Shown here in pieces: positions 1-63,240 of a stretch of DNA of 64,000 nucleotides. Under the pieces are notes generated by a model. The model had not been told where the DNA came from. It saw only the letters and a program-made list of their open reading frames with translations, and made no database searches. Within the stretch, counting starts at the first letter, position 1. The number at the start of each line of letters is the position of its first letter. This DNA comes from Okamejei kenojei (taxonomy: Eukaryota). The stretch lies in contig CM069132.1 of assembly GCA_035221665.1 (NCBI GenBank), positions 131,378,001 to 131,442,000 of the forward strand, written 5' to 3'. The position numbers and the translations under genes were made by a program.

Positions 1-819
1 TAGATGAGGAACAGAAGAGCATGGAATGTTGAAACAAACATGCCAGAAATGGGTTTGGGAAAAGGCATTTAAGTAAATGCACCAAATGTGTTGGTCAGGA
101 ACCATTCCAGTTTGTTGTGATGGAATATTGGATCATGTTAGAAAAGCGGTGAAAAGTGTAAGATTAGGTCATGGTTAGTTTTTAAGAATAAGTTAGAAGA
201 GTAATAAGATTAGAGAGTAAGTATTACAGGAACAGGATGGGTACATATGATTAGATATACTGCTCACGTGGAGAATAATTACTGTCATTGACTCACTGAG
301 CCAAATGATCACTTTCATATGCTGTACTTATCATATAATTCTGTGCATCAGTGAATAGACCTTTGTTACTTGGGAAACAAGAAATGTCAGTGGAAGTACA
401 TTTATTTAAAAAAATAATATATATATTTCATCCACAAATATAGCTTCACTATTATTTGGGCAAATGCTTCACTCTCCAAACTGAAAATAAATGTTGAAAA
501 TGTTCTTGAAGACATTAGTGAGGCTTTACAATATAATAATGATGTCAAATAACTAGACCCAAATGGGTCCAAATTATGCTTCATTTCTAACTGCTGTGGA
601 TTGCTCACCTAGTCAAGTGGAGTTTATTATCACATGCACAAGTACAGTAAAGCACAGATCTAATGAAAAATCTTACTCACAGCAGCATCACAGACACAGA
701 CAACATACAAATACATACATTATTCATAAATTACACAATTAAAAGAAAAAAAGACTAAAACACGATATTAGCGCAAGACAATTATGTTCAATAGTGCCCT
801 ATTGCTAAGGTGGGATTAG

Positions 820-3049: not shown

Positions 3050-3245
3050 CATTTGCCAAGCTTTACCCCTATTCCATCCCTTTTCCAACTTTCTAATCCC
3101 TATTCCAACAGTCTGAAGAAGAGGCCCAACCAAAAACATCTCCTGCCCATTCTCCCCATAAATGCTCCCTCATCCGCTGAGCTCCTCCAGCCCATTGTGT
3201 TTTGCTCAAGATTCCAGCATCAGCAGTCTTTTGCATCTCCAGGGC
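3050..3245 (+). mobile_element. Penelope-like element terminal repeat fragment (decayed hammerhead motif)
   Basis: CAGTCTGAAGAAGAGGCCCAACCAAAAACATC..CCGCTGAGCTCCTCCAGC..CCAGCATCAGCAGTC, a diverged member of the family at 29216-29434. Confidence 0.6.
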
Positions 3246-7236: not shown

Positions 7237-7957
7237 TCATGATCTTCAATCATTTAAATAGACATACAAAAAGCTACCATAACAATATGATTTATGGATA
7301 CAAAAGGTTCAATAACTTCAGGAAATTATCATCACTTCATCAGTTCAGCAATAATGGAAAAAAAAACTAATTTACCCCACGCATTCATGGCCTTTCATGT
7401 TATTGTTGTATTCTGTAGGAGATCACTAAGGAAATAATATTAATCATTCATTGTCAGAAGTAATAGATTTAAATCAGTGTATTGGATGATCCATACACCA
7501 GAATCATACAGCATGGAAACAGGTCCTTCCATTCAAATCCATGTCAACCATCTAGTATCCATTTGCACCAATTCTTTATTTCAAACTTTTATTCTCCCAA
7601 CAAACCCCTACAAATTATGCTGCTCCCCTACATGCAAGTGGCAATTTAAAGTGGCTGTTTGTCCTCCCAAGCGATATCTTTGGGATATGGAGGGAAAGTA
7701 GATCAAGTGGAGGAAATACTTTTTTAATCTCCTCACAGACCGCATCAGAGGTCAAGATTGAATCCTGGTTGCTGGATCTTTTAAATAGCAAATCTACTAG
7801 TTACACCACTGTTTTGCTGGAGTGTATCAGTCATCATTAACGTCACATATAATGGCCTTACGATTCATGAGAAGGTTGCATTCCAAAAATTGATGTATGG
7901 GGGCCAAAGATGATACAATTTTCTGACAAAGGAATAAAAGGCAGGTTGGCGATTGAA

Positions 7958-8052
7958 CTGAAGAAGGGTCTTGACCCGAAACATCACCTATTCCTTTTCG
8001 CCAGAGATCCTGCCTGACCCACACGGAGTTACTCCAGCATTTTGTGCCTATC
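7958..8052 (+). mobile_element. Penelope-like terminal repeat with intact minimal hammerhead core
   Basis: CTGAAGA-A-GGGTC-TT-GACCC-GAAA-CATC at 7958-7985. Confidence 0.7.
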
Positions 8053-16905: not shown

Positions 16906-17397
16906 ATAACCATATAACCATATAACAATTACAGCACGGAGACAGGCCCTCTCGGCTCTTCCAGTCCGTGCCGACCATTTGTTTTCCCCTAGTCCCATCT
17001 ACCTGCACTCAGACCATACCCCTCCATTCCCTTCCCGTCCATATGCCTATCCACTTTACTTTTAAATGTTAAAATCGATCCTGCCTCCACCACCTCTGCT
17101 GGAAGCTCATTCCACACAGCCACCACCCTCTGAGTAAAGAAGTTCCCCCTCACGTTACCCCTAAACTTCTGTCCCTTAATTCTCATGTCATGCCCTCTTG
17201 TTTGAATCTTCCCTACCCTTAATGGGAAAAGCTTATCCACGTCAACTCTATCTATCCCTTTCATCATTTTAAAGACCTCAATCAAGTCCCCCCTTAACCT
17301 TCTGCGCTCCAAAGAATAAAGACCTAACTTGTTCAACCTTTCTCTGTAACATAGTTGCTGGAACCCTGGCAACATTCTAGTAAATCTCCTCTGTACT
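16906..17397 (-). mobile_element. CR1 family B, 5'-truncated young copy inside Gypsy gag
   Basis: Open ORF2 C-terminus (MLPGFQQLCYRERL..SAGRWD), 3'UTR and (GGTTATAT)n tail; near-identical to 62760-63240. Confidence 0.93.
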
Positions 17398-19286: not shown

Positions 19287-19365
19287 AGTCTGAAGAAGGG
19301 TCTCGACCTGAAACATCACCAATTCCTTCTCGCCAGAGATGCTGCCTGTCCTGCTGAGTTACTCA
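19287..19365 (+). mobile_element. Penelope-like terminal repeat with intact minimal hammerhead core
   Basis: AGT-CTGAAGA-AGGGTCTCGACCT-GAAA-CATC-ACC at 19287-19320. Confidence 0.7.
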
Positions 19366-20585: not shown

Positions 20586-20619
20586 TCATTCTCCTTAAAT
20601 CTCCTAATTCTCTTAATTC

Positions 20620-20755
20620 TTCAGACCCGAAAGGGTCTCGACCTAAAACGTTACCCATTCCTTCTCTCCAGATATGCTGCCTGTTCTGCTGAGTTACTCC
20701 AGCATTTTGTGTCTATCTTCAGTGTAAACCAGCATCTGCAGTTCCTTCCCACACA
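20620..20755 (+). mobile_element. Penelope-like terminal repeat
   Basis: AAGGGTCTCGACCTAAAACGTTACCCATTCC..GCTGAGTTACTCCAGC..CCAGCATCTGCAGTTCCTTCC. Confidence 0.75.
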
Positions 20756-22965: not shown

Positions 22966-24369
22966 ATGCCATTTTGCTGGTCTCACATCCAAGGAAAATT
23001 AAATTAAAGAGTCAAACACGTAAATCAGCCATATGAATGCGAGCATAGGCCTTAACTTTATGCTTAAATAAAAATATCATTATCGGTCAGCAATCTTGAT
23101 CAATTTTGATTATAGCACTACTGTGTGACAATTAATCTCCCAGTCTCTGGTTATAAAACTACTTTTCATTATCTTATAATTGAAGGCAAACCCAAGGACG
23201 TAATCACTGCACATTTACTAATTTATATACTTTTAACAAGATTTTACAACTATCATGAATGGAAAATAATCAGGAAAGGGAACCTTATTCAAATCATTAC
23301 TATATTTGGTAAGAGCACTTGCGATTTCCTGCAAACTCCACGCAGAGTGTAAATTGTACAAAATTTAATCCCCAATTAGCGAATTAAAAGTTGCTTATGA
23401 ACTATTCAATAGTTTGTCAATAAAGATTTACTATTTGAAATATAACTACTTAAGAAAACAATTAACATCGAGTCTTGAATTCAAGCTGGCCAGAATCATT
23501 GGAATTATTTGGCATTTCACATAATTAACAGTTAATAGACCAACATAAAAAATATTCAGGCACTACATCATATATCATAATAAACTGCCATGTCAATGAA
23601 GATTAAACTTAATATTGAATACAATAAGAATTATCTTCGCCACATGCTCGTGACAACTGGCAGTTTGCAACAGTATATGGAGCTGATAGCTTGGACACTC
23701 AAGTCTCAGTGGTGCATTGGCTTGGAATTTGAATATCAGACAGGACAACTTCCCAGCCAGTCATTAGATAAAGGGTTGTCTAGCTCCGAGCACTGCCAAT
23801 GCATAACCTAAGTATTAGCGCAGCCAAAAGGACACCCTGGCAATAAACACTGCCAGCAAATAATTCAACAGTAAATGCACACAGCCAATAAACTTTACAT
23901 ATGTGCTTTTACTTTAATGCTTTTCATCTATGTTTACAGGTTACTCTGTTCTTTATCATATTTAACCAATGTTGAAGGTGAATGTGAACGATTGCCAGAG
24001 AGCTGCTACGTATTTAATGCTGGATTAAACCAAGAGCAAAATGACAAGCAAGCAATTTGGCTATTCATTTTATCTTGTCTGAACTGGAAGGCAGACAATA
24101 AAGATGTTACCTCTCTTAAAAAATATGTTTTTGGCATGATCCAAGTGTTTAGCAACATAGGAAAGAGAAATGACTCATTGACAAGTCTGCAACACCAGGT
24201 GGTTTGTGCCCTTTTTCAACCTCCCCGTGTTTTGCCCATATTTGCTTCATATCCCTTATGGTATCCATCCACACCAATAGCCATTGCATTGCTACTTTAG
24301 TACCCACAGCTTGTCAGAGGAGAGCATTCTAAATGTTCACCACAGTTGATCTAGAGAAAAATGCGACCT

Positions 24370-24575
24370 ACTTTTATTTCCTGGTTTCCTATCCCTGTAC
24401 CTATCCAAATGTTTCTTAAATGCTGTGATAGTACCTTCCTCAACTACCTCAACTGGCAGCCCATTCCATAGACCTACCACCCTTTGGGTAAAAACATTTC
24501 TGCTTGGGTTCCTATTAAATCTACCCTCTCCCCTCACTTTACACCCATGCCCTTTGGTTCATGATTCCTCTACTC
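24370..24575 (-). mobile_element. Old CR1 3' fragment
   Basis: Minus-strand ORF VFTQRVVGLWNGLPVEVVE..FKKHLDRY. Confidence 0.8.
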
Positions 24576-24677
24576 AAACACATTTAGCCTATCTAATCCT
24601 GATGGCAGTCAAGCAACACATACACTAGCAACATGGGCTAAAACGTCAGTGGCCATACTAGTATATATGACTGCTGG

Positions 24678-24830
24678 AGATAGATACAAAACGCTGGAGT
24701 AATTCAGCGGGACAGACATCATCTCTGGATAGAAGGAATGGGTGATGTTTCAGGTCTAGACCCTTAGTAATTCCAGCATTTTGCATCTATCTTTGGCTTA
24801 AACCAGCATCTGCAGTTCCTTCGTACAACA
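24678..24830. mobile_element. Fold-back Penelope-like terminal repeat
   Basis: AGATACAAAACGCTGGAGTAATTCAGCGGG.. and inverted ..TTCCAGCATTTTGCATCT..CCAGCATCTGCAGTTCC. Confidence 0.7.
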
Positions 24831-26189
24831 TTTTATCTGACTGCTGGGTTAGCTCCATCACCTGCATTTACTAATAGATTCTCACAGTGTGGAAACAGAC
24901 CCACCCTTTGGCTCAACATGCCCACTCCAGCCAACATTCCCCATCTATACTAGTCCCAACTGCCAGCCTTTGGCACATATCCCTCTAACTCTACCCTATC
25001 CATGTACCTGTCTATATGTTTCTTAAACACTGTGATGGTAACTGCCTCACCCAGCAGTGTGCAGGAAGGAACTGCAGATGCTGGTTTTAAAATCGAAGAA
25101 ACCCAGTCTCTAGCACTGTGAGGGATCAACTCTACCACTGCACCACCATGCACTGTATTTAGGATGCATCTAAAAATGCATTTTAATTGCCAAGGCATGG
25201 CAGGTTATGGGCCAAACACAGGTCAATTGGATTAATATAGATAACCCCAACAGTCAGTATAAACATGGTGGGCTAAAGGGCCTGTTACTGACCTGTATGA
25301 CTCAGAGTCTTAATGAAAGTAACGGAAGGCTTGCGATTTGTGGGCATCATTTATGACAGAAATATTCCAATTCAGTTATAAAAAAAAGTTTTCCAATCAT
25401 TCTCCAGTTGCTTAGGAACACCAAAACGGATTATAATAGAGATCTTTTGATGAGTACTGTATTACTCTAAATGTATTGTTGTAATTCCACCACAAGGCAT
25501 CATTCCAATTATGTTCTTTGAAATCAGCAGACACCCAACAGTGCCAAAGTGTATCAGCCTGGGTTAATTAATCATTGCACTGAATGCTCAGGCAAATACA
25601 AAGAGGGTTGCCCAAGGCCTCCTAAGAAATTGGGGAGAAAAAAGCATGAAATATGGAAATGTCAGAATGAAAAGAAAATCATTGACATTGCATTACTTCC
25701 AACTTCAAAGCACTCCATAATCCACAAATTATTCTCACTGAGAACTTACTTCACAGAAACAGCCATGTGTGACCATGCCAAAGTTTATGCTCCATTAAAA
25801 TTTGGCATAGTGTGGTACATCAGACATGGCAAGAATTGGGTATGAAATTATACTGAGGGCAGCAAAGATGGGGAAGGAAAATAATGCACTGTGCTGTCCA
25901 AAGTCTATCATCAATCTTGGGCTGCACTCACTCAGAAGACAGGATATTCTTCTGGACGTTTTAAAATCCCCTTATGTACAAACTCAGGTCACCCCTTTCA
26001 AAATGTTTATCATATTGGCTCAACTACGCTCTGGTGGCACATGTTAACTACAATGCAGGCTTATAAGTTCCTTCCAAATTAATTATGGACTGATTAGCAC
26101 AAAGCATTCACCCTTTAATAGTCCGAACCTTTTCATCTGCAAGGCATATCAAGAGTACAATAATTAATAATTGATTCAGAATTAATGTC

Positions 26190-26670
26190 GGGCAATTATG
26201 GGCTTGAGTTATAAGGGGTGATTGGATAGGTTCAAACCGCTCTCCCAGAAAGTCAAGATTCAGTGTTTTACTGTTATGTCCCGATAGGGAACAATAAAAC
26301 TCTTACTTGCAGTAAACGTGGGCGTGGGGTGACTTCAAAGAAATTGAGAAGTTCGCAGGGAGCATGGATAGGGTAGTCACTGTCTTTTTCTCAATGTAGT
26401 GAATTTAGAAATGTTATTTCTAAAATTGGAGGCAAAGGTTTAAAATGATAGGGAAAACATTTAAAAGGGGATAAAAGTGGCATTTTTTCCAGACTAAGAT
26501 ACGTGTAAGGAAGAGCTACAATAGTGTGTGGGGTAGAGACAGGTAATAATTACAACTTTTAAAAGGCATTTGAACATGGACAGGAGAAAATTAGAGAGAC
26601 ATGGCCCAAAACAAAGACTTCTTGCTCTGCATAGACAAGTTGGGTCAAAGTGTCTGTTTCTATGGTGTCT
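26190..26670 (+). mobile_element. Highly decayed CR1 3' fragment
   Basis: GGCTTGAGTTATAAGG..TTGGATAGG, GCATGGATAGGGTAG, TTTAAAAGGCATTTG, GTTGGGTCAAAGTGTCTGTTTC recognisable as the CR1 ORF2 end/3'UTR. Confidence 0.55.
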
Positions 26671-26759
26671 GACATTGAATCTGCCTGAATGAATATAGTT
26701 CCAATGATAGTAGTAGCTCCATATCATTCAAAAGGTGGTATAGGTTTATTAATACTACA

Positions 26760-27300
26760 TGTAAACATTGACAAGCTTTGTTTGTGTGTTATCTAGGCAA
26801 AACAAATCATATTACACAATCACAACGTACGATAGGTAGTACTAAGCGAAAAACATCAGGTTGCAGAATGTAGTGTTACAGTATTACCATTATGAGGGAA
26901 AAGTCCAAGGTGTACAATGAGATAGGTTGGAGAACTGGGACTGTATCCTAGCTTATGGGGGGTGGGGATGGACAGGGGGCGCGACGGTTCAGCACTCTGA
27001 TAAGATCAGGGAAACAGCTGTTCCTATATTTGCTATGTGCTTTTGAGTTTTTGTATCTTCTGCCTGATGAGAGAGGGGAGAAGAAAGTGTGATCTAGGTG
27101 AAAAAGGTTTGAGGCAGCACGAAGTATAGATAGAGTTCATGGTTGGGAGACTGGTCTGCGTCATGCACTGGGCTACATCCTCAATTCTCTGCAATATTTT
27201 GCAGTCTTGGGTAGATCTGTTACCAAATCAAGCTGTGATGCACCTCGATGTGATGTTTCCTGTGGTGCATTTGTAGAAGTAAGAGCCCTTGGCAAACTTG
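26760..27300 (-). mobile_element. Decayed Rex1/Babar-like LINE 3' fragment
   Basis: AAACAGCTGTTCC..TGGGCTACATCCTCAATTCTCTGCAA..CCAAATCAAGCTGTGATGCA; similar to 45630-46250. Confidence 0.65.
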
Positions 27301-27451
27301 CCGAACAAAATAGCACACTTGACTGATATCTTATCTACCACACTAAATTTTAATTCCCTCTACTGACATTGCATTGTAACTGCAGTATATCGAGTCTACA
27401 AAATGCACTTGATACTTGTCATGGGTACTCCAACAGGACTTTAAACCTGCT

Positions 27452-27840
27452 TGGAAGGAACTGCAGATGCTGGATTACACCAAAGAAACACAAAATGCCG
27501 GAGTAACTCAGTGGGACAGGCAGCATCTCTAGATAGAAGGAATGGGTGACGTTTCGGGTTGAGACCCTCCTTCAGTTCGAGTCAGGGGAGAGGGAAACGA
27601 GTGCTATGGAAGGGAAAGGTGTGAAAATAAGTGATCAAAGGGGACGAAGTTCAAGGAAAATATAGATCATTGTTAGCTTGGGGAAGAGGATAACAAGCCA
27701 TACAAAGTAAAATGTAATCAGTCAGTGAACTAGGATGGGGAGGGATCAACAGCGAGGGAAAGCAAGGATTACGAAGTTAGAGAAGTCAATATTCATACTG
27801 CTGGGTTGCATGCCGCCCAAATATGAGGTGATGCTCCTCC
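27452..27840 (-). mobile_element. Penelope-like element 3' fragment with terminal repeat
   Basis: Terminal repeat GGAAGGAACTGCAGATGCTGG..GACGTTTCGGGTTGAGACCC followed by a purine-rich stretch and AATATTCATACTGCTGGGTTG..AATATGAGGTG, consistent with the C-terminal end of a PLE ORF on the minus strand. Confidence 0.6.
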
Positions 27841-28049
27841 TTTAAACCTGGGACCCCCCCCCCGGTCCCCAATTATTCTGGAGGTTAAGAGCAGTACCTA
27901 CCATTTCTTGCAATTCCCCTTTTCACTAGGCATACAAAAAACAATGTAATTGTTTTTTACGTTGCTTTATGGACCTCAAAACACAACATTGCAGCAAATC
28001 TTAGCCACAATGACCCACCACTTCAAAGTAACTCATCAGCTTCAATGGC

Positions 28050-28690
28050 AAATAGAACATAGCAATTAGAACATAGAAATAGTGCAGCACAGACCCTGTG
28101 GCCCACAACCTCTGTGCTGAACACGATGCCAACGTAAACTGATCTCATTTGCCTGCATATGATCCATATCCTTCCTTTTCTTGCATATCCATGTGTCTTC
28201 TAAAAGTCTCTTACGCATTAATATCATATCTGACTCCTCCATCAGACAGAGTGTTCTATGCACTCACCAACCTGTGTAAAAATGAAATCCCTTGTACATC
28301 TTTAAACTTTGCCCCTCTCAACTTAAAGTTATGCCCTCATGTCCTTGACATTTTCATCCGGGGGAGGGGGGGGGGGGGAAGGATCTGACTGTCTATCCTA
28401 TCTATGCCCCTCAATTTCATATGCTTCTACCAGGTCTGCCCTCAACCTTCGATGCCCCAGAGAAAACAATCCAAGTTTGTCCATCCTCTCCTTGTAGCTA
28501 ATACCCCCTAATCCAGGCAACATTCTGAAAAACCTTTTCTGCACCTTCTCCAAATCCTTCCTGTAAAGAGGCGATCAGAACTGCATGCAATACTCCAAAA
28601 CCACACCACATGTCTTCTGTACCACTACTTACCTTTGCAGCCACATTCAGGGGCCATGAACCTGGACCCCCAAGACGCTTCTGCACATAA
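28050..28690 (-). mobile_element. Old CR1 3' fragment
   Basis: AGAACATAG tail repeats; minus strand GGAGTATTGCATGCAGTTCTG, TTGCCTGGATTAGGGGG, GGACAAACTTGGATTGTTTTCTCTG. Confidence 0.75.
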
Positions 28691-28939
28691 TTCCTTATAA
28701 TTAGAATGGAGAGGGCCCCATCTCAAAATGTCATCTGTTCAATCCCTGCACAGATGCTGCCTGCCAAATTTCAGCATCTGCAGTTTCTTGTGGAACTAAT
28801 CCATGCCAGAATTTATGCTCCATATGATCATCCTCCAGTCTTTCGACCACTCGATCAACATAACCCTTTATTCTTTCTCTGTCATGTGCTTGTTTGTCCA
28901 GCCTCCCCTTAAATTGATCAATCCAAGAACAAGAACAGA

Positions 28940-29175
28940 AACAGGGATAGTTTCTTCCCAGCTGTTAACAAGGAACGGAATCCTCCTACCACAACCAGAG
29001 AGCAGTCCTGAACTGCTATCTGCCTCTTTACTGCACTAAACATTTCTCCCTTATAATGTATCTGTGCACTGTGGTGGCTCGATTGTAACCATGTATTGTC
29101 TTTCTGCTGACTGGTCAGCACGCAACAAAAGCTTTTCACTGTACCTTGGTGCACATGACAATAAACTAAAACTGA
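28940..29175 (+). mobile_element. Rex1/Babar-like LINE 3' fragment
   Basis: AGTTTCTTCCCAGCTGTT..AAAAGCTTTTCACTGTACCTTGGTGCACATGACAATAAACTAAA. Confidence 0.7.
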
Positions 29176-29215
29176 ACAAATACTCTTCACCTAAACCAAT
29201 CCCTGAGATAATGTG

Positions 29216-29434
29216 TTAACGAAGAAACTGCAGATGCTGGAGAATCGAGGGTTACACAAAAAGCTGGAGAAACTCAGCGGGTGCAGCAGCATCTAAGAGG
29301 CGAAGGAGATAGGCGACGTTTTGGGTTGAGACCCTTCTTCAGACTGAAGAAGGGTCTCGACCCGAAACGTCGCCTATCTCCTTCTCCTCTTAGCTGCTGC
29401 TGCACCCGCTGAGTTTCTCCAGCTTTTTGTGTAA
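29216..29434. mobile_element. Young fold-back Penelope-like retro-insertion with 15-bp TSD and hammerhead core
   Basis: CCCTGAGATAATGTG at 29201-29215 and 29435-29449; ~95-bp inverted arms (29248-29342 / 29344-29438) around a 1-nt loop. Confidence 0.85.
29344..29371 (+). ncRNA. Minimal type I hammerhead ribozyme motif
   Basis: CTGAAGA-A-GGGTC-TC-GACCC-GAAA-C-GTC: CUGANGA box, 5-bp stem II, GAAA box, palindromic ACGT in place of stem III, GUC cleavage triplet; activity not demonstrated. Confidence 0.7.
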
Positions 29435-29969
29435 CCCTGAGATAATGTGCCTCACATCCTGTCTCTCCTTTCACTAAAGAGGTTTCACTTAAATTTCTCA
29501 GTGATTATCTTGCCACTTTTCTCCCCATTCCCCACATAGATTATCCTGTGGTCTGGACATTTTCTCCTGACCATAAACCACACAATCTATTTTTTGTACC
29601 ATTTGAAAGCTTCTTTATATGCTTCCATCATTTAAATCATTAATATACATAACAAAGGGCCAAGTAGTGAGCCTTGCAACAAAACATAGCAACAGTCTTC
29701 CAGTTACAAAATCATTCATAAAGCATTACCATTTGATTCCCTTCATTTAGCCAATTTCCGATCCAATTTGCCACCATCCCTTGGATCCTACTGGTATTTA
29801 TTTTCTCGACAAGCTGACCATATGGGAACTATTCAGAGATGTAGGCTACATCAGGAAACACCGTTCCATTTATCATTACTCAGTCAAACTTTAGCAATTT
29901 ATTCATCCATAATATAGACATTTGTTTGGCATAAGGATGGGATATATTTATCTTTGGGCCTGCCAATTT

Positions 29970-30300
29970 ATCCAATTTCAAAGATGCTAATGAAGGACGA
30001 GTTGCACCTCGGCCACTCCCTCTTCTGCCCTCACCCAGCAGGCAAAAGGTACATGTGTGTGAACGCACACCTCCAGATTCATGGACAACAACTAGAGAGC
30101 GGCCCCAAGCTACTACCTACCTCATTGGCGACCCTCAGTCTATCTTTGACCGGATCTTACTCTTTACTATATTCCCTGGATCGTGTATCTGTACACTGTA
30201 AATGGCTTGAATGTAATCATGTATTGCCTTTCTGCTGCCTGGTTAGCCACAGCAAAAGCTTTTCACTGTTACCTCATTATGTGCAACGATAAACTAAACT
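29970..30300 (+). mobile_element. Rex1/Babar-like LINE 3' fragment
   Basis: CACCTCGGCCACTCCCTCTTC..CACCTCCAGATTCA..AAAGCTTTTCACTGT..ATAAACTAAAC. Confidence 0.7.
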
Positions 30301-30736
30301 TCATATCCATTGCTATATTTATCCAATCCTGTTTTCGTACATGACTCTTTTTGAAAACGAGTATTCTACCCAGTTTACAAAGTCGATCAACAGACTTAAA
30401 ATCATCTCTAACCTTCCACCTCCAGACACATTACATTTTGTTGATCCTCAATAAGTTTAACTTTTTTCCTTTGATAAACGCATCCTCTGCATTTCTAAAA
30501 ATCATTCTATATTCCCCAAATTTATGCGTGGTTTAAAAATTTGGAATAAATCTATTCTGCGTTGTCACACAACGCTAACCTGCTGGCTCTGCATTGAGCT
30601 GTGCATTATTTACCGCTGAGTTCATAAATCATTGGATTTCAGCACAGCTTGATACCAGAAAATGAGCACATGTGCCAACTACATGTGTGGTAGCCTGCTG
30701 CTTCACAATGGGAACCAGGATGGGAAGATTTTAAAA

Positions 30737-31125
30737 CGGGAGAGGGGAGGGGGGAGCTGCGGAGAGGGGAGGGGGGAGAGGGGAGGGGGAGAGGCGGAGA
30801 GGGGAGGAGGGAGACGGAGAGGGGAGGAGGGAGAGGGGAGGGGAGGAGACACGGAGGGGAGGGGGGAGGGGGGCGTGGGGGAGGAGAAGGGAGCATGGGG
30901 AGGGGAGGGGAGCATGGGGAGGAGAGGGGAGAGTGGGGGAGGAGAGGGGAGCGTGGGGGAGGAGAGGGGAGCGTGGGGGAGGAGAAGGGAGCATGGGGGA
31001 GGGGAGGGAGGGGACATGGGGGAAGGAGAGGGGAGCGTGGGGCAGGAGAGGGGAGCGTGGGGGAGGAGAGGGGAGCGTGGGGGAGGAGAGGGGAGCGTGG
31101 GGGAGGAGACAGAGAGGGAAGGAAG
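30737..31125 (+). repeat. G/A-rich minisatellite, ~20-bp unit GGGAGCGTGGGGGAGGAGAG
   Basis: About ten recognisable units at 30870-31110, preceded by a degenerate polypurine tract. Confidence 0.92.
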
Positions 31126-31639
31126 GTGACAAGAGTGCAGATGGGAGGTTAGGAGATAGATTTCAGGCTAATCAAATTGAAGGTAAAGCTTTGCCGAAAC
31201 ACAAAGTACCCTCTTTGACAAAGAAGTTAACTCATTTTCACAATAGTGGAAAGAATTTTTACGTGTACAAATCTTCTCTTTTTAAGTGAGACTGAGTTGG
31301 CATGGACGCGTAATTGTGGTGCAGTAATGTACACCCTTACCCTATTTGAATTTGCCAGGTTGCAAATGGTCAACTCTTAATTAGATAATTTGAGGGGTTG
31401 GGGAGGCAAAGGGGTAGTTAGGTGGTGTCAGTAAAATCCAGTCAGAGCCCCGGGTTAGCTTCAAGTTGCACTAATTCATGTAGTCATGCATTGCATAATC
31501 TGACCAATGTTACAACTCGTGCAGTAACATGCTGCACATACAGTCTGGCACAAATGTCTGCATTCTCCGCCACTGCACAGTTGCTGTCAGCTTTATTATT
31601 GTCACATGCAGCAAAGTACAGTGAAAAGCTTAGATTTGC

Positions 31640-31900
31640 ATGTAGAATTGCTGCCTTACAACGCCAGTGACCCGGGTTCAATCCTGACCACAGGTGCCGT
31701 CTGTATGGAGTTTGTACATTCTCCCTGTGACCACATGGGTTTTCACCGGGTGCTCTGTTTTCACACGACACGCAGGTTTGTAGGTAATTGGCTTTAGTAA
31801 AATTGTCCCTCAGGTGTAGTACAGAACTAGTGTATGGGCGATCGTTGGTTGGCACGGACTCGGTACGCCAAAAAGCTTGTCTCCACGCTGTACCTCCAAT
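31640..31900 (+). mobile_element. tRNA-derived V-SINE copy
   Basis: GTAGAATTGCTGCCTTACAACGCCAGTGACCCGGGTTCAATCC, V-domain GGAGTTTGTACATTCTCCCTGTGACC. Confidence 0.82.
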
Positions 31901-32186
31901 TTATACTAAAGATACTCTTTTCAATTTAAAAACATAGTGAGCCTGATTCGACCCTGGCACACCGACAGCTATAACAATGCACCTGCGTTCCCTGACCAAC
32001 AATACAAAGGCGTCTGGTCACATGCTCAGCAGCACCAGCAACACATGTAAGCTGAAAATTGTCCAAAAAAAAAGAAACTGCTATTGTGGCCATGCAGGAA
32101 AATTGGATTATGTCAATGTCCAAGCTAGAAATTCTGGACAGCAATTCTCTTTTAAATCTATAAATTTGTTGTGAGGTTACCACAAA

Positions 32187-32228
32187 CACCCCCCCCCCCC
32201 CCCCCCCCCCCCCCCACCCCCCCCCCAC
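32187..32228 (+). repeat. Poly(C) tract
   Basis: ~40-nt C run with isolated A interruptions; similar runs at 38154-38200 (C), 45398-45416 and 28362-28378 (G). Confidence 0.9.
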
Positions 32229-32727
32229 CTGCCCACCACCACTATTTGCCTGTGATCAACTAAGCACTACAGAAAAATGCCCCAAATGATTTCTCTGAAC
32301 TTGATGCCACAAATCAGCCTCTGCATTTAGTGTATAAAAAGGGAGCTATTGTGAGGGTCAAACAATTGGTATTGATCAAAGGGGGTCATTATCCTTGGAC
32401 GTCCAGCTTCCTGTAATGAGATACGAGGTGCAGCACAGCGTTAATTTGTGAAATAATTCCTTCACAATGCTGCCGTTGCTTGCTAGCCTGTGGGGATTCT
32501 TCAGTGCCTCCCCCATTCAGGAGAAAGGTCCCGGCCAGTCCTGCAGTTGCGACAAGATCCAGTTTTTTTTTTTTCTCACTGTCCATTCACGAGACAGTCT
32601 CAGTCCTGAACCAGCGGAAATATTTTCTCACACTAACGTTGGCCCTCATTGCACCAAACATATGCATGCTTAACGCCAGCAGCAACACCTCCATTTATGC
32701 TTTTTGATATGCTTGAAGGGTCAAAAG

Positions 32728-32950: not shown

Positions 32951-33260
32951 AAAGATAGACACAAAATGCTGCAGTAACTCAGTGGGTCAGGCAGCATCTC
33001 TAGAAAAAAGGAATAGGTGACGTTCTGGGTCGAGACCCTTCATCAGACTGAGAGTCGGAGTGGGACAGTAGGAGTATGGGAAAGTACAGAACTAAGCAGA
33101 GCATGCATCGATGACTCAGGAAAGGTGGAGCCCATAATGGTCCATTGTTGGCCAGGGATGAGGTGATAAAGGAATACAAAATGGTGAAATTATACTAGTG
33201 TGGTGGGGGGATGTGGAGAGTGAGCGAGAGAGAGGGAATGCAAGGGTTACTCGAGGTTAG
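32951..33260 (-). mobile_element. Penelope-like element 3' fragment with terminal repeat
   Basis: AGATAGACACAAAATGCTGCAGTAACTCAG..GACGTTCTGGGTCGAGACCCTTCATCAGACTG followed by a purine-rich region resembling 27580-27780. Confidence 0.65.
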
Positions 33261-34026: not shown

Positions 34027-34212
34027 GTGTAGGGAGGAACTGCAGATGCTGATTTAAACCAAAGATAGACACAATAAGCTGGAGTAACTCAGTGGGACAG
34101 GCAGCATCTCTGGAGAAAAGGAATGGGTGGCGTTTCGGATCAAGACCCTTCTTCACCCATTCCTTCTCTCCAGAGATGCTGTTTGAGTTACTCCAGGCTA
34201 ATGTGTCTAATC
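34027..34212. mobile_element. Fold-back Penelope-like terminal repeat
   Basis: GGAACTGCAGATGCTG..CAGCATCTCTGGAGAAAAGGAATGGGTG and inverted CACCCATTCCTTCTCTCCAGAGATGCTG. Confidence 0.78.
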
Positions 34213-42764: not shown

Positions 42765-43525
42765 TTTGAGGATGTTGCCAGGACTCAAAGGGCCTGAGCT
42801 TTTATGGAAAGATTGGGCAGACAAGGACTTTATTCCTTGGAGCAGGGAAGGCTGAGGCGCGATCTTATAGAGGTGTCTAAGATCATGAGGAGAAATAGAT
42901 AACCATATAACAATTACTGCACGGAAACAGGCCCTCTCGGCCCTTCCAGTCCGTGCCGACCATTTGTTTTCCCCTAGTCCCATCTACCTGCACTCAGACC
43001 ATACCCCTCCATTCCCTTCACGTCCATATACCTATCCACTTTAGTCTTAAAAGTAAAAATCGATCCTGCCTCCACCACTTCTGCTGGAAGCTCATTCCAC
43101 ACAGCCACCACCCTCTGAGTAAAGAAGTTCCCCCTCACGTTACCCCGAAACTTCTGTCCCTTAATTCTCATGCCATGCCCTCTTGTTTGAATCTTCCCTA
43201 CCCTCAATGGGAAAAACGTATCCACGTCAACTCTGTCTATCCCTTTCATCATTTTAAAGACCTCAATCAAGTCCCCCCTTAACCTTCTGCGCTCCAAAGA
43301 ATAAAGATCTATTCTTTACTGCATAAGATAGGGTGAATGCAGTCTTTTCCCCTGTTTAGGGAAATCAAGAACTAGGGGACAGAGGTTTAAGGTGAGAAGG
43401 GCAAAGCTTAATATGAGCCTGAGGGCAAAACACAGGAAAATGGGGCTAGCTTAAAGGAGGAATCTTGGTCCGAATGGAAAGTTGGGCCGAAGGGCCTGTT
43501 TCCATGCTGCATGACTATGCATCTA
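42765..43525 (+). mobile_element. Old CR1 3' fragment interrupted by a younger CR1
   Basis: GGATGTTGCCAGGACTC..GATCATGAGGAGAAATAGATA resumes as AGATAGGGTGAATGC..AGAACTAGGGGACAGAGGTTTAAGGTGAG after 43326. Confidence 0.75.
42899..43306 (-). mobile_element. CR1 family B, 5'-truncated young copy
   Basis: Open frame ERRRLRGDLIEVFKMMKG..SAGRWD plus 3'UTR and GTTATATGGTTAT tail. Confidence 0.93.
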
Positions 43526-43929
43526 AATAACAATGGAGCTAATCACTCCCAAATAAATTACAGAAAAGACAGCATTGGCAAAACTCAGTGGGTCAGGCAG
43601 CATCACAGGTGAACACGAGCAGGTGACGTTTCAGGTTGGGACACTTCTTGACTGATTGTAGGGGACAGGGGAAAAGGGGGAGGAGATGAGGGGCAGGAGA
43701 GAGCGAAGGGTGTAATGCGAAAATATTCCTCAAATAAATCACCCTTTTCACTAATAAAACTATTTTCTTTAAATGAATTGAATGATAACATAAGGAGGAA
43801 AAACAAGTTTCCAGACAAATAACCGATTCAGCATGTACTGATGAGGAAAGGACCGGGATCAGTATGCAAAGCTTCATGGCTTTTAATAGTTATTTTTGTC
43901 AAGGAGATAACAAAGTCATCAAAGGAATT

Positions 43930-44273
43930 TGACGTGGATAAGTTTTTCCCATTGAGGGTAGGGAAGATTCAAACAAGAGGGCATGACATGAGAATTAAGG
44001 GACAGAAGTTTAGGGGTAACGTGAGGGGGAACTTCTTTACTCAGAGGGTGGTGGCTGTGTGGAATGAGCTTCCAGCAGAAGTGGTGGAGGCAGGATCGAT
44101 TTTAACATTTAAAAGTAAAGAGGATAGGTATATGGACGTGAAGGGAATGGAGGGGTATGGTCTGAGTGCAGGTAGATGGGACTAGGAGAAAACAAATGGT
44201 CGGCACGGACTGGAAGGGCCGAGAGGGCCTGTTTCCGTGCTGTAATTGTTATATGTTATATGTTTTGTTATAT
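43930..44273 (+). mobile_element. CR1 family B, short 5'-truncated copy
   Basis: DVDKFFPLRVGKIQTRGH..SAGRWD, GTTATAT tail; candidate TSD GGAAT at 43924-43928 and 44274-44278. Confidence 0.93.
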
Positions 44274-44339
44274 GGAATCGAGTCAGACTGTTTTCTACAC
44301 ATAATTCTTCAGAATACATGAAAAATAAAACATGGTGCT

Positions 44340-44490
44340 GCTCTCCCCTGACTCTCAGTATAAAGAAGGGTTCCGACCCAAAACGCCACCTATTCCTTTT
44401 CTCCAGAGATGCTGCCTGACCCACTGAGTTACTCCAGCATTCTTCTGTACCTTTGGTGTAAACCAGCAACTGCAGTTCTTTCCCACACGG
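44340..44490 (+). mobile_element. Penelope-like terminal repeat
   Basis: AGAAGGGTTCCGACCCAAAACGCCACC..CTGAGTTACTCCAGC..CCAGCAACTGCAGTTC; hammerhead core decayed. Confidence 0.72.
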
Positions 44491-47758: not shown

Positions 47759-48965
47759 AACCATATAACCATATAACAATTACAGCACGGAAACAGGCCC
47801 TCTCGGCCCTTCCAGTCCGTGCCGACCATTTGTTTTCCCCTAGTCCCATCTACCTGCACTCAGACCATACCCCTCCATTCCCTTCACGTCCATATACCTA
47901 TCCACTTTACTCTTAAATGTTAAAATCGATCCTGCCTCCACCACTTCTGCTGGAAGCTGATTCCACACAGCCACCACCCTCTGAGTAAAGAAGTTTCCCC
48001 TCACGTTACCCCGAAATACCTCTGTCCCTTAATTCTCATGTCATGCCCTCTTGTTTGAATCTTCCCTACCCTCAATGGGAAAAAAACGTATCCACGTCAA
48101 CTCTGTCTATCCCTTTCATCATTTTAAAGACCTCAATCAAGTCCCCCCTTAACCATCTGCGCTCCAAAGAATAAAGACCTAACTTGTTCAACCTTTCTCT
48201 GTAACATAGTTGCTGGAACCCTGGCAACATTCTAGTAAATCTCCTCTGTACTCTCTCTATTTTGTTGACATCCTTCCTATAAACTAGGCGACCAAAATTG
48301 TACACCATACTCCAGAATTGGTCTTACCAATGCCTTGTACAATTTTAACATTACTTCCCTACTCCTATATTCAATGCTCTGATTTATAAAGGCCAGCACA
48401 CCAAAGGCTTTCTTTACCACCCTATCTACATGCGATTCCACCTTCAGGGAACTATGCACAGTTATTCCTAGATCCCTCTGTTCCACAGCATTCCTCAATT
48501 CCCTACCATTTACCATGTACGTCCTATTTTGATTTGTCCTGCCAAGATGTAGCACTTCACACTTATCAGCATTAAACTCCATCTGCCATCTTTCAGCCCA
48601 CTTTTCCAAATGGCCCAAATCTCTCTGTAGACTTTGAAATCTACTTCATTATCCACAACACCACCTATCTTAGTATCATCTGCATACTTACTTATCCAAT
48701 TTTCCACCCCATCATCCAGATCATTGATGTACATGACAAACAACAGTGGACCCAACACAGATCCCTGAGGCACCCCACTGGTCACCGGCTTCCAACCTGA
48801 CAAACAGCCATCCACCATTACTCTCTGACATCTCCCATTCAGCCACTGTTGAATCCATCTTGCTACTCCGCCATTAACACCCAAAGATTGAACCTTCTTA
48901 ACCAACCTTCCATGGGGAACCTTGTCAAAGGCCTTACTGAAATCCATATAGACAACATCCACTGC
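47759..48965 (-). mobile_element. CR1 family B, 5'-truncated copy inserted in the Tc1 5' region
   Basis: AVDVVYMDFSKAFD..VPQGSVLGP..YADD..SAGRWD with small indels; (GGTTATAT)n tail; Tc1 sequence GGAGTATCA resumes as CAGAGTAAAGGGGGC. Confidence 0.95.
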
Positions 48966-54522: not shown

Positions 54523-54620
54523 AGATAGACACAAAAAGCTGGTGTAACTCAGCGGGAATGCAGCATCTCTGGAGAGAAGGAATGGGTAACGTTTCAGGTC
54601 GAGACCCTTCTTCAGACAGA
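54523..54620 (-). mobile_element. Penelope-like terminal repeat with intact hammerhead core
   Basis: Reverse complement of 54588-54615 is CTGAAGA-AGGGTCTCGACCT-GAAA-CGTT. Confidence 0.72.
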
Positions 54621-60492: not shown

Positions 60493-61287
60493 CAATTGAA
60501 AGGTGCTACACTAACACCACTGAAAGCTGATAGGCTTGATACAAATTATGTTCAGTCTCTTAGCTCAAGATGACCCAGATATATCACAGTGCCGGATCCA
60601 TGGTCACAGCTGGAAAGCAGATACACCTCACTACTTGCGTGTTGTTATGCAGAGTTGGAAGGCCAGAACTTGCTGATGTTCAGGTTGTAACTGATCAGCA
60701 ATTCTCAACCAAACCATCAGCTGCCCATAAATACAACCTGGGCCAATACAGAATCCAAGGGAAAAGAAAATTAATTAAATTAGGTGCACATAGAACATGT
60801 GACTCATAACCGCAAGGGCTAGTTGAGACAAATAGTGAGAATACATTTAAAGGAAAGTTGGATTCGCACACAAGGGAGAGAGTGATGTCAATAGAGCAGG
60901 GTTCAGGAAGGTGGAAGGAGCTCATGCAAAATGTTGACTTCATGGGCTGAATGGCCTATTTCAATGCAACTTTGTTGTAGAGGGAAAATAAACCTGACGT
61001 GTGTTTATTTGGTACCTTCTGAGTTCACCACAGTAATTTGCAGTGTTGGCAGGCTTCACGACAAGCACACATGCAAACAGGGCAGGTTTTATTCAGTAAA
61101 CTGGACTGGAGTAGGCAGTGGATATAGTTAGCTTGTCTCCTGGGCTATTTGCAATGAACACTGGGCAAAAAACATCCACAGTTTGCCCAGAACATTGGAC
61201 AATATGCAAACTGATGAACAACACAGGTTTTGGGGATTCTGAATGCAAAATTAAATACAAATTACAAAGGTTGTGGCCATCAATAAT

Positions 61288-63240
61288 TATAGGAGGCATG
61301 GAGTAAATGAGGTGCTAGAGGAGTATAAAGAATGTAAAAAGAATCTTAAGAAAGAAATTAGGAAGGCTAAAAGAAGATATGAGGTTGCTTTGGCAAGAAA
61401 GGTGAAAGTAAACCCAAAGGGTTTCTACAGCTATATTAATAGCAAAAGGATAACGAGGGATAAAATTGGACAATTAGAGAACCAGAATGGACAGCTATCT
61501 GCAGAGCCAAAAGAGATGGGGGAGATATTGAACAATTTCTTTTCTTCGGTATTCACCAAGGAGAAGGATATTGAACTCTGTGAGTTAAGGGGAAAAAGTA
61601 GAGTAGCTATGGAAACTATGAGATTCAAAGAGGAGGAGGTACTGACACTTTTGAAAAATATAAAAGTGGATAAGTCTCCAGGTCCTGACAGGATATTCCC
61701 TAGGACATTGAGGGAAGTTAGTGTAGAAATAGCAGGAGCTATGACAGAAATATTTCAAATGTCATTAGAAACGGGAATAGTGCCGGAGGATTGGCGTACT
61801 GCGCATATTGTTCCATTGTTTAAAAAGGGTTCAAAGAATAAACCTAGCAATTATAGACCAATTAATTTGACGACAGTGGTGGGCAAATTAATGGAAAGGA
61901 TACTTAGAGATAATATATATAAGCATCTGGATAAACAGGGTCTGATCAGGAACAGTCAACATGGATTTGTGCCTAGAAGGTCATGTTTGACAAACCTTCT
62001 TGAATGTTTTGAAGCGGTAACTAGGGAAATTGATGAGGGTAAAGCAGTGGATGTTGTCTATATGGATTTCAGTAAGGCCTTTGACAAGGTTCCCCATGGA
62101 AGGTTGGTTAAGAAGGTTCAATCTTTGGGTGTTAATGGCGGAGTAGCAAGATGGATTCAACAGTGGCTGAATGGGAGATGTCAGAGAGTAATGGTGGATG
62201 GCTGTTTGTCAGGTTGGAAGCCGGTGACCAGTGGGGTGCCTCAGGGATCTGTGTTGGGTCCACTGTTGTTTGTCATGTACATCAATGATCTGGATGATGG
62301 GGTGGAAAATTGGATAAGTAAGTATGCAGATGATACTAAGATAGGTGGTGTTGTGGATAATGAAGTAGATTTTCAAAATCTACAGAGAGATTTGGGCCAT
62401 TTGGAAAAGTGGGCTGAAAGATGGCAGATGGAGTTTAATGCTTGATAAGTGTGAAGTACTACATCTTGGCAGGACAAATCAAAATAGGAAGTACATGGTA
62501 AATGGTAGGGAATTGAGGAATGCTGTGGAACAGAGGGATCTAGGAATATCTGTGCATAGTTCCCTGAAGGTGGAATCGCATGTAGATAGGGTGGTAAAGA
62601 AAGCCTTTGGTGTGCTGGCCTTTATAAATCAGAGCATTGAATATAGGAGTAGGGAAGTAATGTTAAAATTGTACAAGGCATTGGTAAGACCAATTCTGGA
62701 GTATGGTGTACAATTTTGGTCGCCTAGTTATAGGAAGGATATCAACAAAATAGAGAAAGTACAGAGGAGATTTACTAGAATGTTGCCAGGGTTCCAGCAA
62801 CTATGTTACAGAGAAAGGTTGAACAAGTTAGGTCTTTATTCTTTGGAGCGCAGAAGGTTAAGGGGGGACTTGATTGAGGTCTTTAAAATGATGAAAGGGA
62901 TAGACAGAGTCGACGTGGATAAGCGTTTTCCCATTGAGGGTAGGGAAGATTCAAACAAGAGGGCATGGCATGAGAATTTAAGGGACAGAAGTTTAGGGGT
63001 AACGTGAGGGGGAACTTCTTTACTCAGAGGGTGGTGGCTGTGTGGAATGAACTTCCAGCAGAAGTGGTGGAGGCAGGATCGATTTTAACATTTAAAAGTG
63101 GATAGGTATATGGACGTGAAGGGAATGGAGGGGTATGGTCTGAGTGCAGGTAGATGGGACTAGGGGAAAACAAATGGTCGGCACGGACTGGAAGGGCCGA
63201 GAGGGCCTGTCTCCGTGCTGTAATTGTTATATGGTTATAT
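61288..63240 (+). mobile_element. CR1 family B, longest copy (5'-truncated, complete RT domain)
   Basis: KSPGPD, NYRPINLT, QHGF, YMDFSKAFD, GVPQGSVLGP, YADD; +1 frameshift near 62442 and indels near 62930-63000; tail GTTATATGGTTATAT. Confidence 0.96.

Follow-up and report, generated by a model that had tools for sequence, protein, structure and literature searches.

What kind of sequence is a 219-bp insert that lies between two exact 15-mers, folds back on itself and carries a hammerhead-like core on each strand, and how did it arise? The insert was found in a 64,000-nt stretch of Okamejei kenojei DNA (the window; GCA_035221665.1, CM069132.1, 131,378,001-131,442,000, forward strand), and positions below are window positions. 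A first-pass annotation had offered two origins, a protein-free, non-autonomous ribozyme retroelement or an extremely truncated Penelope-like element (PLE) made by snap-back. Within the PLE pLTR, we number from the C of CUGAAGA as +1, which places the predicted ribozyme cut between +28 and +29.

Structure of the insert

The coordinates of the insert and of its perfect duplication, whose two copies are spaced 234, were all confirmed (Table 1), as was the overlap of CCCT between the end of the right arm and the duplication. The inverted arms (29248-29342 and 29344-29438) are 95 nt each and 96% complementary, with a 1-nt spacer, in agreement with the near-perfect hairpin of about 95 bp described before; the predicted fold has an energy of -190.9 kcal/mol (z = -25), and none of 200 shuffles was equally stable. 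A further 32 bp have no pairing partner and form a one-sided extension of the tailed arm, which corresponds to the PLE tail. The fold-back point does lie one base 5′ of the CUGANGA box, as CTGAAGA begins at 29344, next to the centre base 29343. The centre of the insert has the same seven letters as parent copies, which have T in the middle, and since the parent carries CAG-T-CTG across its pLTR front edge, the fold-back point is a native micro-palindrome.

The reported hammerhead-like core on each strand was also recovered, with GTC at 29369-29371 and with AAAA for GAAA in the minus core. This change and a second G-to-A change in stem II both fall at CpG and are missing from most copies, so they appear to be decay. 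An uninterrupted target site was not found in the genome of the insert with up to two mismatches allowed.

Table 1. Features of the insert and its flanks in window positions.
Feature	Position	Strand	Remark
Target site duplication, left copy, 15 bp	29201..29215	.	Exact repeat with 29435..29449
Long (tailed) arm, pLTR -1 to +127	29216..29343	- (element sense)	Match to ORF-linked pLTRs
PLE tail, 32 bp, single arm only	29216..29247	-	Outside inverted repeat; ORF-adjoining in full-length copies
Putative minimal type I hammerhead core of long arm	29315..29342	-	G12 to A and further G-to-A in stem II, both CpG
Junction, CAG-N-CTG micro-palindrome; centre base 29343	29340..29346	.	Native to parent pLTR front edge
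Short (tail-less) arm, pLTR +1 to +91/+95	29344..29438	+	Final 4 nt common with right duplication
Putative minimal type I hammerhead core of short arm	29344..29371	+	Intact core without the first stem I pair; cut predicted after 29371
Target site duplication, right copy, 15 bp	29435..29449	.	Exact repeat with 29201..29215

The parent Penelope-like element

Long open frames were located by a protein search of the genome, and 12 stretches were fetched. Two of these (L196 and L197) hold a pLTR, an open frame of 1,197 codons and a second pLTR, and L199 is similar with a shorter frame. The intact protein of L197 has 1,185 aa from its ATG, and Pfam matched RVT_1 at residues 669-839 (E 5e-6) and GIY-YIG at 1089-1122 (E 0.004), both under the curated cut-offs; the parent translation also carries DKG and YIDD motifs. 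Read from its translation, the parent is an EN+ PLE with a single ORF that joins a reverse transcriptase (RT) to a C-terminal GIY-YIG domain. The linker between RT and endonuclease in L197 is CNRKKCNTC (CX4CxxC), and the endonuclease reads as the CCHH type, with CxxC flanked by LIY and YIG and with two histidines further downstream. The layout indicated by these motifs fits the Neptune/Nematis type of PMC8557442, which defines the CCHH endonuclease motif for EN+ PLEs and the CX2-5CxxC linker for that clade. A PDB sequence search with the RT-EN part gave no matches at E <= 0.1.

The long arm of the window matches the pLTR that immediately precedes the intact ORFs (L196, L197) at 94.5% identity across 128 nt, and it is 97.7% identical to an ORF-linked pLTR in L189, with which it has subfamily markers in common. 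In addition, 11 of 30 loci picked by the hammerhead stretch run upstream into shared sequence that reaches the GIY-YIG and RT frame. The first-pass annotation had proposed to test whether the termini match an autonomous PLE, and the arms are indeed the pLTR of an RT and GIY-YIG element in this genome; these ORF-linked pLTRs, along with the family motif, also support the link to PLEs and their minimal hammerheads that it had drawn. The tail adjoins the ORF directly in full-length copies. The three copies with a pLTR before the ORF all have at least 400 bp of 3′ end ahead of it, as partial-tandem pLTRs, and none of these full-length copies starts at -3.

The RNA of this pLTR (L197:4150-4280, alignment A2) is predicted to pair the tail with +49..+56 and with the CUGAAGA box, a fold that would hold the ribozyme off. 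These helices are conserved without compensatory change, and a two-sided change was seen in 1 of 21 pairs of the consensus fold.

Hammerhead motifs

The family motif comprises CUGANGA, one unpaired base, a G-C pair opening stem II, GAAA and a palindromic vestigial stem III. These elements are shared with the PLE hammerheads of Cervera and de la Pena 2014 (PMC4209133), and by sequence the motif fits their minimal type I hammerhead. The plus arm and the parent retain an intact core and an intact palindromic stem III, the minus arm has G12A, and core and stem II are identical in 178 of 264 distinct motif contexts. Stem I has 2 bp in the parent and the minus arm, short of the 4-5 bp of the minimal type I hammerhead, and its first pair is broken in the plus arm (A opposite G). 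Stem II has 4-5 bp in the window family; the common motifs in PMC4209133 have 7-8 bp in stem II and 4-5 bp in stem I, with 2 in D. virilis. Across subfamilies (26 arms from 144), none of the 7 pairs of the hammerhead stems had a two-sided change, and stem II was 96.9% paired and near-invariant. PMC4209133 also describes single hammerhead motifs genome-wide and opposite-strand pairs about 100-700 bp apart, whereas the two window motifs are adjacent.

A search with hammerhead models had been proposed as a check on the motif, but an Rfam scan returned no hammerhead at E <= 10, and its 15 matches to other families were all below gathering scores. Forcing stem II with an unpaired core was calculated to cost about 46 kcal/mol on either strand of the window copy, compared with 7.9 in the parent pLTR. 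In the predicted fold, both window cores are damaged and buried in the hairpin, and because of this opening cost the cut after 29371 that the first-pass annotation anticipated is not expected in the window copy.

Non-LTR retrozymes (bioRxiv 10.64898/2026.07.22.740005) are likewise non-coding, with a type I hammerhead and a PLE pLTR origin. Their units are head-to-tail tandems with complete hammerheads, so that both ribozymes lie on one strand, whereas the insert is head-to-head with both cores damaged, and we reject an identity with them.

Copies in the genome

Exact matches in the 2.76 Gb genome numbered 803 for the 27-nt centre, 30,035 for the 33-nt hammerhead stretch and 45,425 for a 35-nt stretch further along the arm, with none for the reversed controls. 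The genome thus holds at least 30,035 hammerhead-bearing ends, and at least 80 matches to the whole insert were listed. The loci surveyed are the first-listed matches on contigs C1-C2 and not a random sample. Among the loci most like the insert (30 taken, of which 3 were dropped as the same places on the other strand), the 27 distinct ones have near-fixed outer ends and a variable centre junction, with a duplication of about 10-18 bp in most. One of them, L002, is a segmental duplicate of the window locus.

A subfamily marker of the window locus had 755 exact genome matches. After one of 25 loci was dropped (L306, anchor missed), the 24 scored copies comprised 11 that run into the parent 3′ UTR or ORF, 11 solo ends and 2 fold-backs with unlike junctions. 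Since junctions vary and 22 of 24 subfamily copies are solo or ORF-linked, fold-backs look newly made at each insertion, and the subfamily copies give no sign of a hairpin master.

Where copies begin and end

The survey of ends covered the 100 arms listed first (C1, 0-5 Mb), counting both arms of each pair. Their 3′ ends form two classes, with 64 at +85..97, 27 at +118..130 and 9 just outside these bins. At the 5′ side, 56 arms begin at -8..+7, 29 are spread from -12 to -1523 and 15 begin further in. The ribozyme cut was rejected as the source of the 5′ ends, since a start within 2 nt of +29 was seen in 1 arm of 100. Of the 67 arms that lack an inverted piece next to them, 50 are short and 17 tailed, and 36 still fall in the front-edge pile-up. 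Genome-wide, parent identity is lost just before -3 in 3,580 copies and before -2 in 4,073, counts that are partly inflated by duplicated carriers.

The letters -5 to +1 fit an initiator consensus. A hand tally gave a weak excess of the G that a cap would add, relative to base composition, with 36 of 100 before -3 (p = 0.024) and 44 of 100 before -2 (p = 0.0016); in fetched cases the extra G was sometimes derived from the target, and 6 of 20 were passengers of one other repeat. Contigs from 4 putative RNA runs (of 24 listed, all contigs) were aligned to a parent copy; their loose ends accumulate at -4/-3, the same place as in the genome, and at least one of the runs is probably DNA. In 13 of 40 fetched copies, 0-1 nt separate the duplicated target from the first element base, and no shared upstream exon was seen in the flanks printed; the other 27 have longer gaps or no clear duplication.

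As a separate observation, TG stands just outside the tailed end in 21 of the 27 distinct insert-like loci (L001-L028), and short ends frequently continue into C tracts. This pattern amounts to an overlap of a few bases with the target at both priming sites; the anole study discussed below reported no homology.

Formation of the fold-backs

Arm pairs were scored at the first 70 listed exact-centre loci, and 33 formed the young set after 37 were dropped (an arm shorter than 75 nt or below 90% identity). All 33 combine one short and one tailed arm, compared with 38% expected under independent choice from the 67 arms without an adjacent inverted piece. In the set of all ages (53 pairs, 17 of 70 dropped), 48 pairs were short plus tailed and 5 were not mixed. 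Variants common to both arms of a copy numbered 21, against 4.3 +/- 2.0 after shuffling, and none of 2,000 shuffles reached this value. Judged by these shared variants, both arms of a young fold-back come from one template, with the caveat that concordance could also arise by gene conversion within the palindrome. The native centre base was assigned to the short arm in 20 of 33 and to the tailed one in 13, a split indistinguishable from even (p = 0.30), and the window copy is of the tailed-arm class.

We consider it probable that two head-to-head pLTR copies, one of them tailed, result from a single insertion in which both cut strands primed copying of one RNA. Such an insertion would draw on an element like those whose pLTRs, flanking intact RT and GIY-YIG frames in the same genome, match the arms. 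The element protein would make a staggered cut, about 15 bp apart. The in vitro behaviour of the anole element suggests that reverse transcription would then begin near +92 on one strand and near +126 on the other, at either end of the tail. Both cDNAs would end at the front edge (-4 to +3), where the observed pile-up most likely marks the RNA 5′ end, and their ends would pair through CAG-N-CTG, followed by repair of an A-A mismatch either way and by fill-in. Two cDNAs that end at -3 and pair over the palindrome would leave such a mismatch and could produce both centre-base classes. The product is non-coding, with the hammerheads as passengers, and is predicted neither to cleave nor to spread as a unit.

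A fuller version, which we rate slightly short of an even chance and propose tentatively, is that one complex primes both strands on one RNA at two fixed sites, so that one arm is always short and the other tailed, that the cDNAs run off a capped 5′ end and that the micro-palindrome joins them. In the same joint proposal, the cap would sit at a site resembling an initiator, three bases ahead of the hammerhead. If true, this would explain head-to-head pLTRs with a one-sided tail without antisense self-priming, and most copies would be run-off products of uncut RNA.

Alternative explanations

The truncated-PLE origin offered by the first-pass annotation is supported as far as truncation goes, but its snap-back step fares less well. 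In such a scheme, which closely resembles the self-priming proposed in Arkhipova 2013, one cDNA (or antisense RNA) would fold on CAG-N-CTG and prime the second arm, and an endonuclease would open the resulting hairpin near +92. The parent already carries the palindrome, both arms would come from one template, self-priming is favoured in PMC3846280, and the window copy itself is in the 13-of-33 class that snap-back predicts. However, a tailed cDNA that snaps back would give only this tailed-arm class, and a short cDNA cannot template a tail, so the 20 of 33 copies whose short arm owns the centre base, and the even split as such, argue against simple snap-back. Many junctions also have gaps or filler and no palindrome, and solo ends share the +92 stop (50 of the 67 arms without an adjacent inverted piece), and overall we regard snap-back as unlikely. 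Two-primer insertion might also hold with a front-edge pile-up caused by splicing at a 3′ site or by a stop of the reverse transcriptase, and not by a transcription start. The pyrimidine-rich stretch of the parent ends in CAG just before -1, the D. virilis intron ends at ribozyme helix I (PMC4209133), and full-length copies starting at -3 were absent (0 of 3). Against a splice site stand the 13 of 40 copies with the target 0-1 nt from the first base and the flanks printed without a shared upstream exon, and if the hammerhead fold halted the enzyme, the stop should lie 3′ of the hammerhead, which makes this variant very unlikely in our judgement.

The other proposed origin is a hairpin element that encodes no protein, carries two hammerheads, undergoes transcription and self-cleavage in its own right and is put back into the genome by the PLE enzyme. 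It could account for 803 copies with an identical 27-nt centre and for the near-fixed outer ends common to 27 distinct loci. Those ends, however, follow from two start sites and a front-edge pile-up, the junctions vary inside one subfamily in which only 2 of 24 copies are fold-backs, and the arm-specific differences that recur are accounted for by CpG changes or end effects. The transcript of such an element would be a duplex of -190 kcal/mol with its core buried, and we grade this origin as already largely refuted and highly improbable. A cut-and-paste MITE with long terminal inverted repeats would share the near-perfect inverted repeat, the absence of coding sequence and the many copies. The first-pass annotation had named a fixed short duplication and the lack of a PLE link as marks of a MITE; the duplication length instead varies in the young fold-backs (median 14 bp; 12-18 bp in 24 of 33), the tail sits on one arm, and the arms are ends of an RT and GIY-YIG element, a frame link that refutes a MITE and leaves it next to no probability.

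Comparison with known elements and significance

The insert is real but an ordinary and likely dead PLE-end insertion whose layout is already described for PLEs. PMC3846280 (Adineta vaga Pen2/Pen2a) describes the inverted pLTR, junction palindrome, tail and duplication, and the Fig. 2 legend of PMC8557442 gives a general scheme of inverted-pLTR insertions of EN+ PLEs; the tail is also described in both and in PMC11167929. Our fold-backs share with these the head-to-head pLTRs, the junction palindrome, the 30-40-bp tail at one end and the duplication of variable length, but both copies in the insert are reduced to the pLTR alone. Both papers invoke self-priming or endonuclease resolution, whereas the counts in the present genome favour two primed cDNAs.

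For the anole Poseidon element PAc, Frangieh et al. 2024 (PMC11167929) report that both target strands are cut and extended, that two internal RT starts bound the tail and that the pLTR hammerhead is dispensable for insertion. The two internal starts are a likeness, supported in the present genome by the two 3′ end classes; the parent differs in its CX4CxxC Neptune/Nematis linker and in an ATG after the tail, that of PAc being inside the hammerhead. PAc had no strand difference in start site in vitro, and the strict short/tailed pairing is therefore not a prediction of that system. In the main text of PMC11167929, inverted insertions are not treated ("inverted" occurs once, for a blocking nucleotide), and in titles and abstract openings, outside subscription papers and repeat databases, we found no literature on this PLE family or on two-strand priming for inverted PLE ends.

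The window locus itself is of little weight, being one PLE end among tens of thousands. Taken together, the copies provide three countable facts on a replication cycle called undefined in PMC8557442: the pairing (33/33), the centre base (20:13) and the 5′ ends (56 of 100 at the front edge vs 1 at the ribozyme cut). The intact frames of this genome would allow testing in vitro, and such hairpins mimic MITEs and microRNA precursors in annotation.

Other repeats in the window and at related loci

The region 22968-32623 of the window is duplicated about 0.9 Mb away (L175, G000:C2:132297000-132306900; 95.9% over 9,956 columns, the whole fetched stretch), and because it includes the insert, the insertion is older than the duplication. 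The window also holds about 20 older, decayed pLTR arms of related subfamilies (68-84% identity), for example at 3109-3227, 7957-8046, 19287-19364, 20617-20748, 27454-27576, 32959-33051, 34035-34155, 44355-44477 and 54529-54620. Young copies of another repeat lie at 61287-63240, 47759-48965, 42899-43311, 43929-44275 and 16906-17397, 96-99% identical to an insertion in L172 that is LINE-like, with a long RT-like frame.

At six loci (L251, L253, L257, L265, L266 and L267), a PLE stub made of an inverted tail and a short arm lies inside another multi-copy repeat and travels along with it, with a common junction and several hundred flanking bases to the same right end. A short PLE stub at about 1500 in L084 is inserted within another frame, presumably a retroviral pol. 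The fold-back at about 1514 in L032 has arms from different subfamilies, which points to two templates or to insertion into an older copy.
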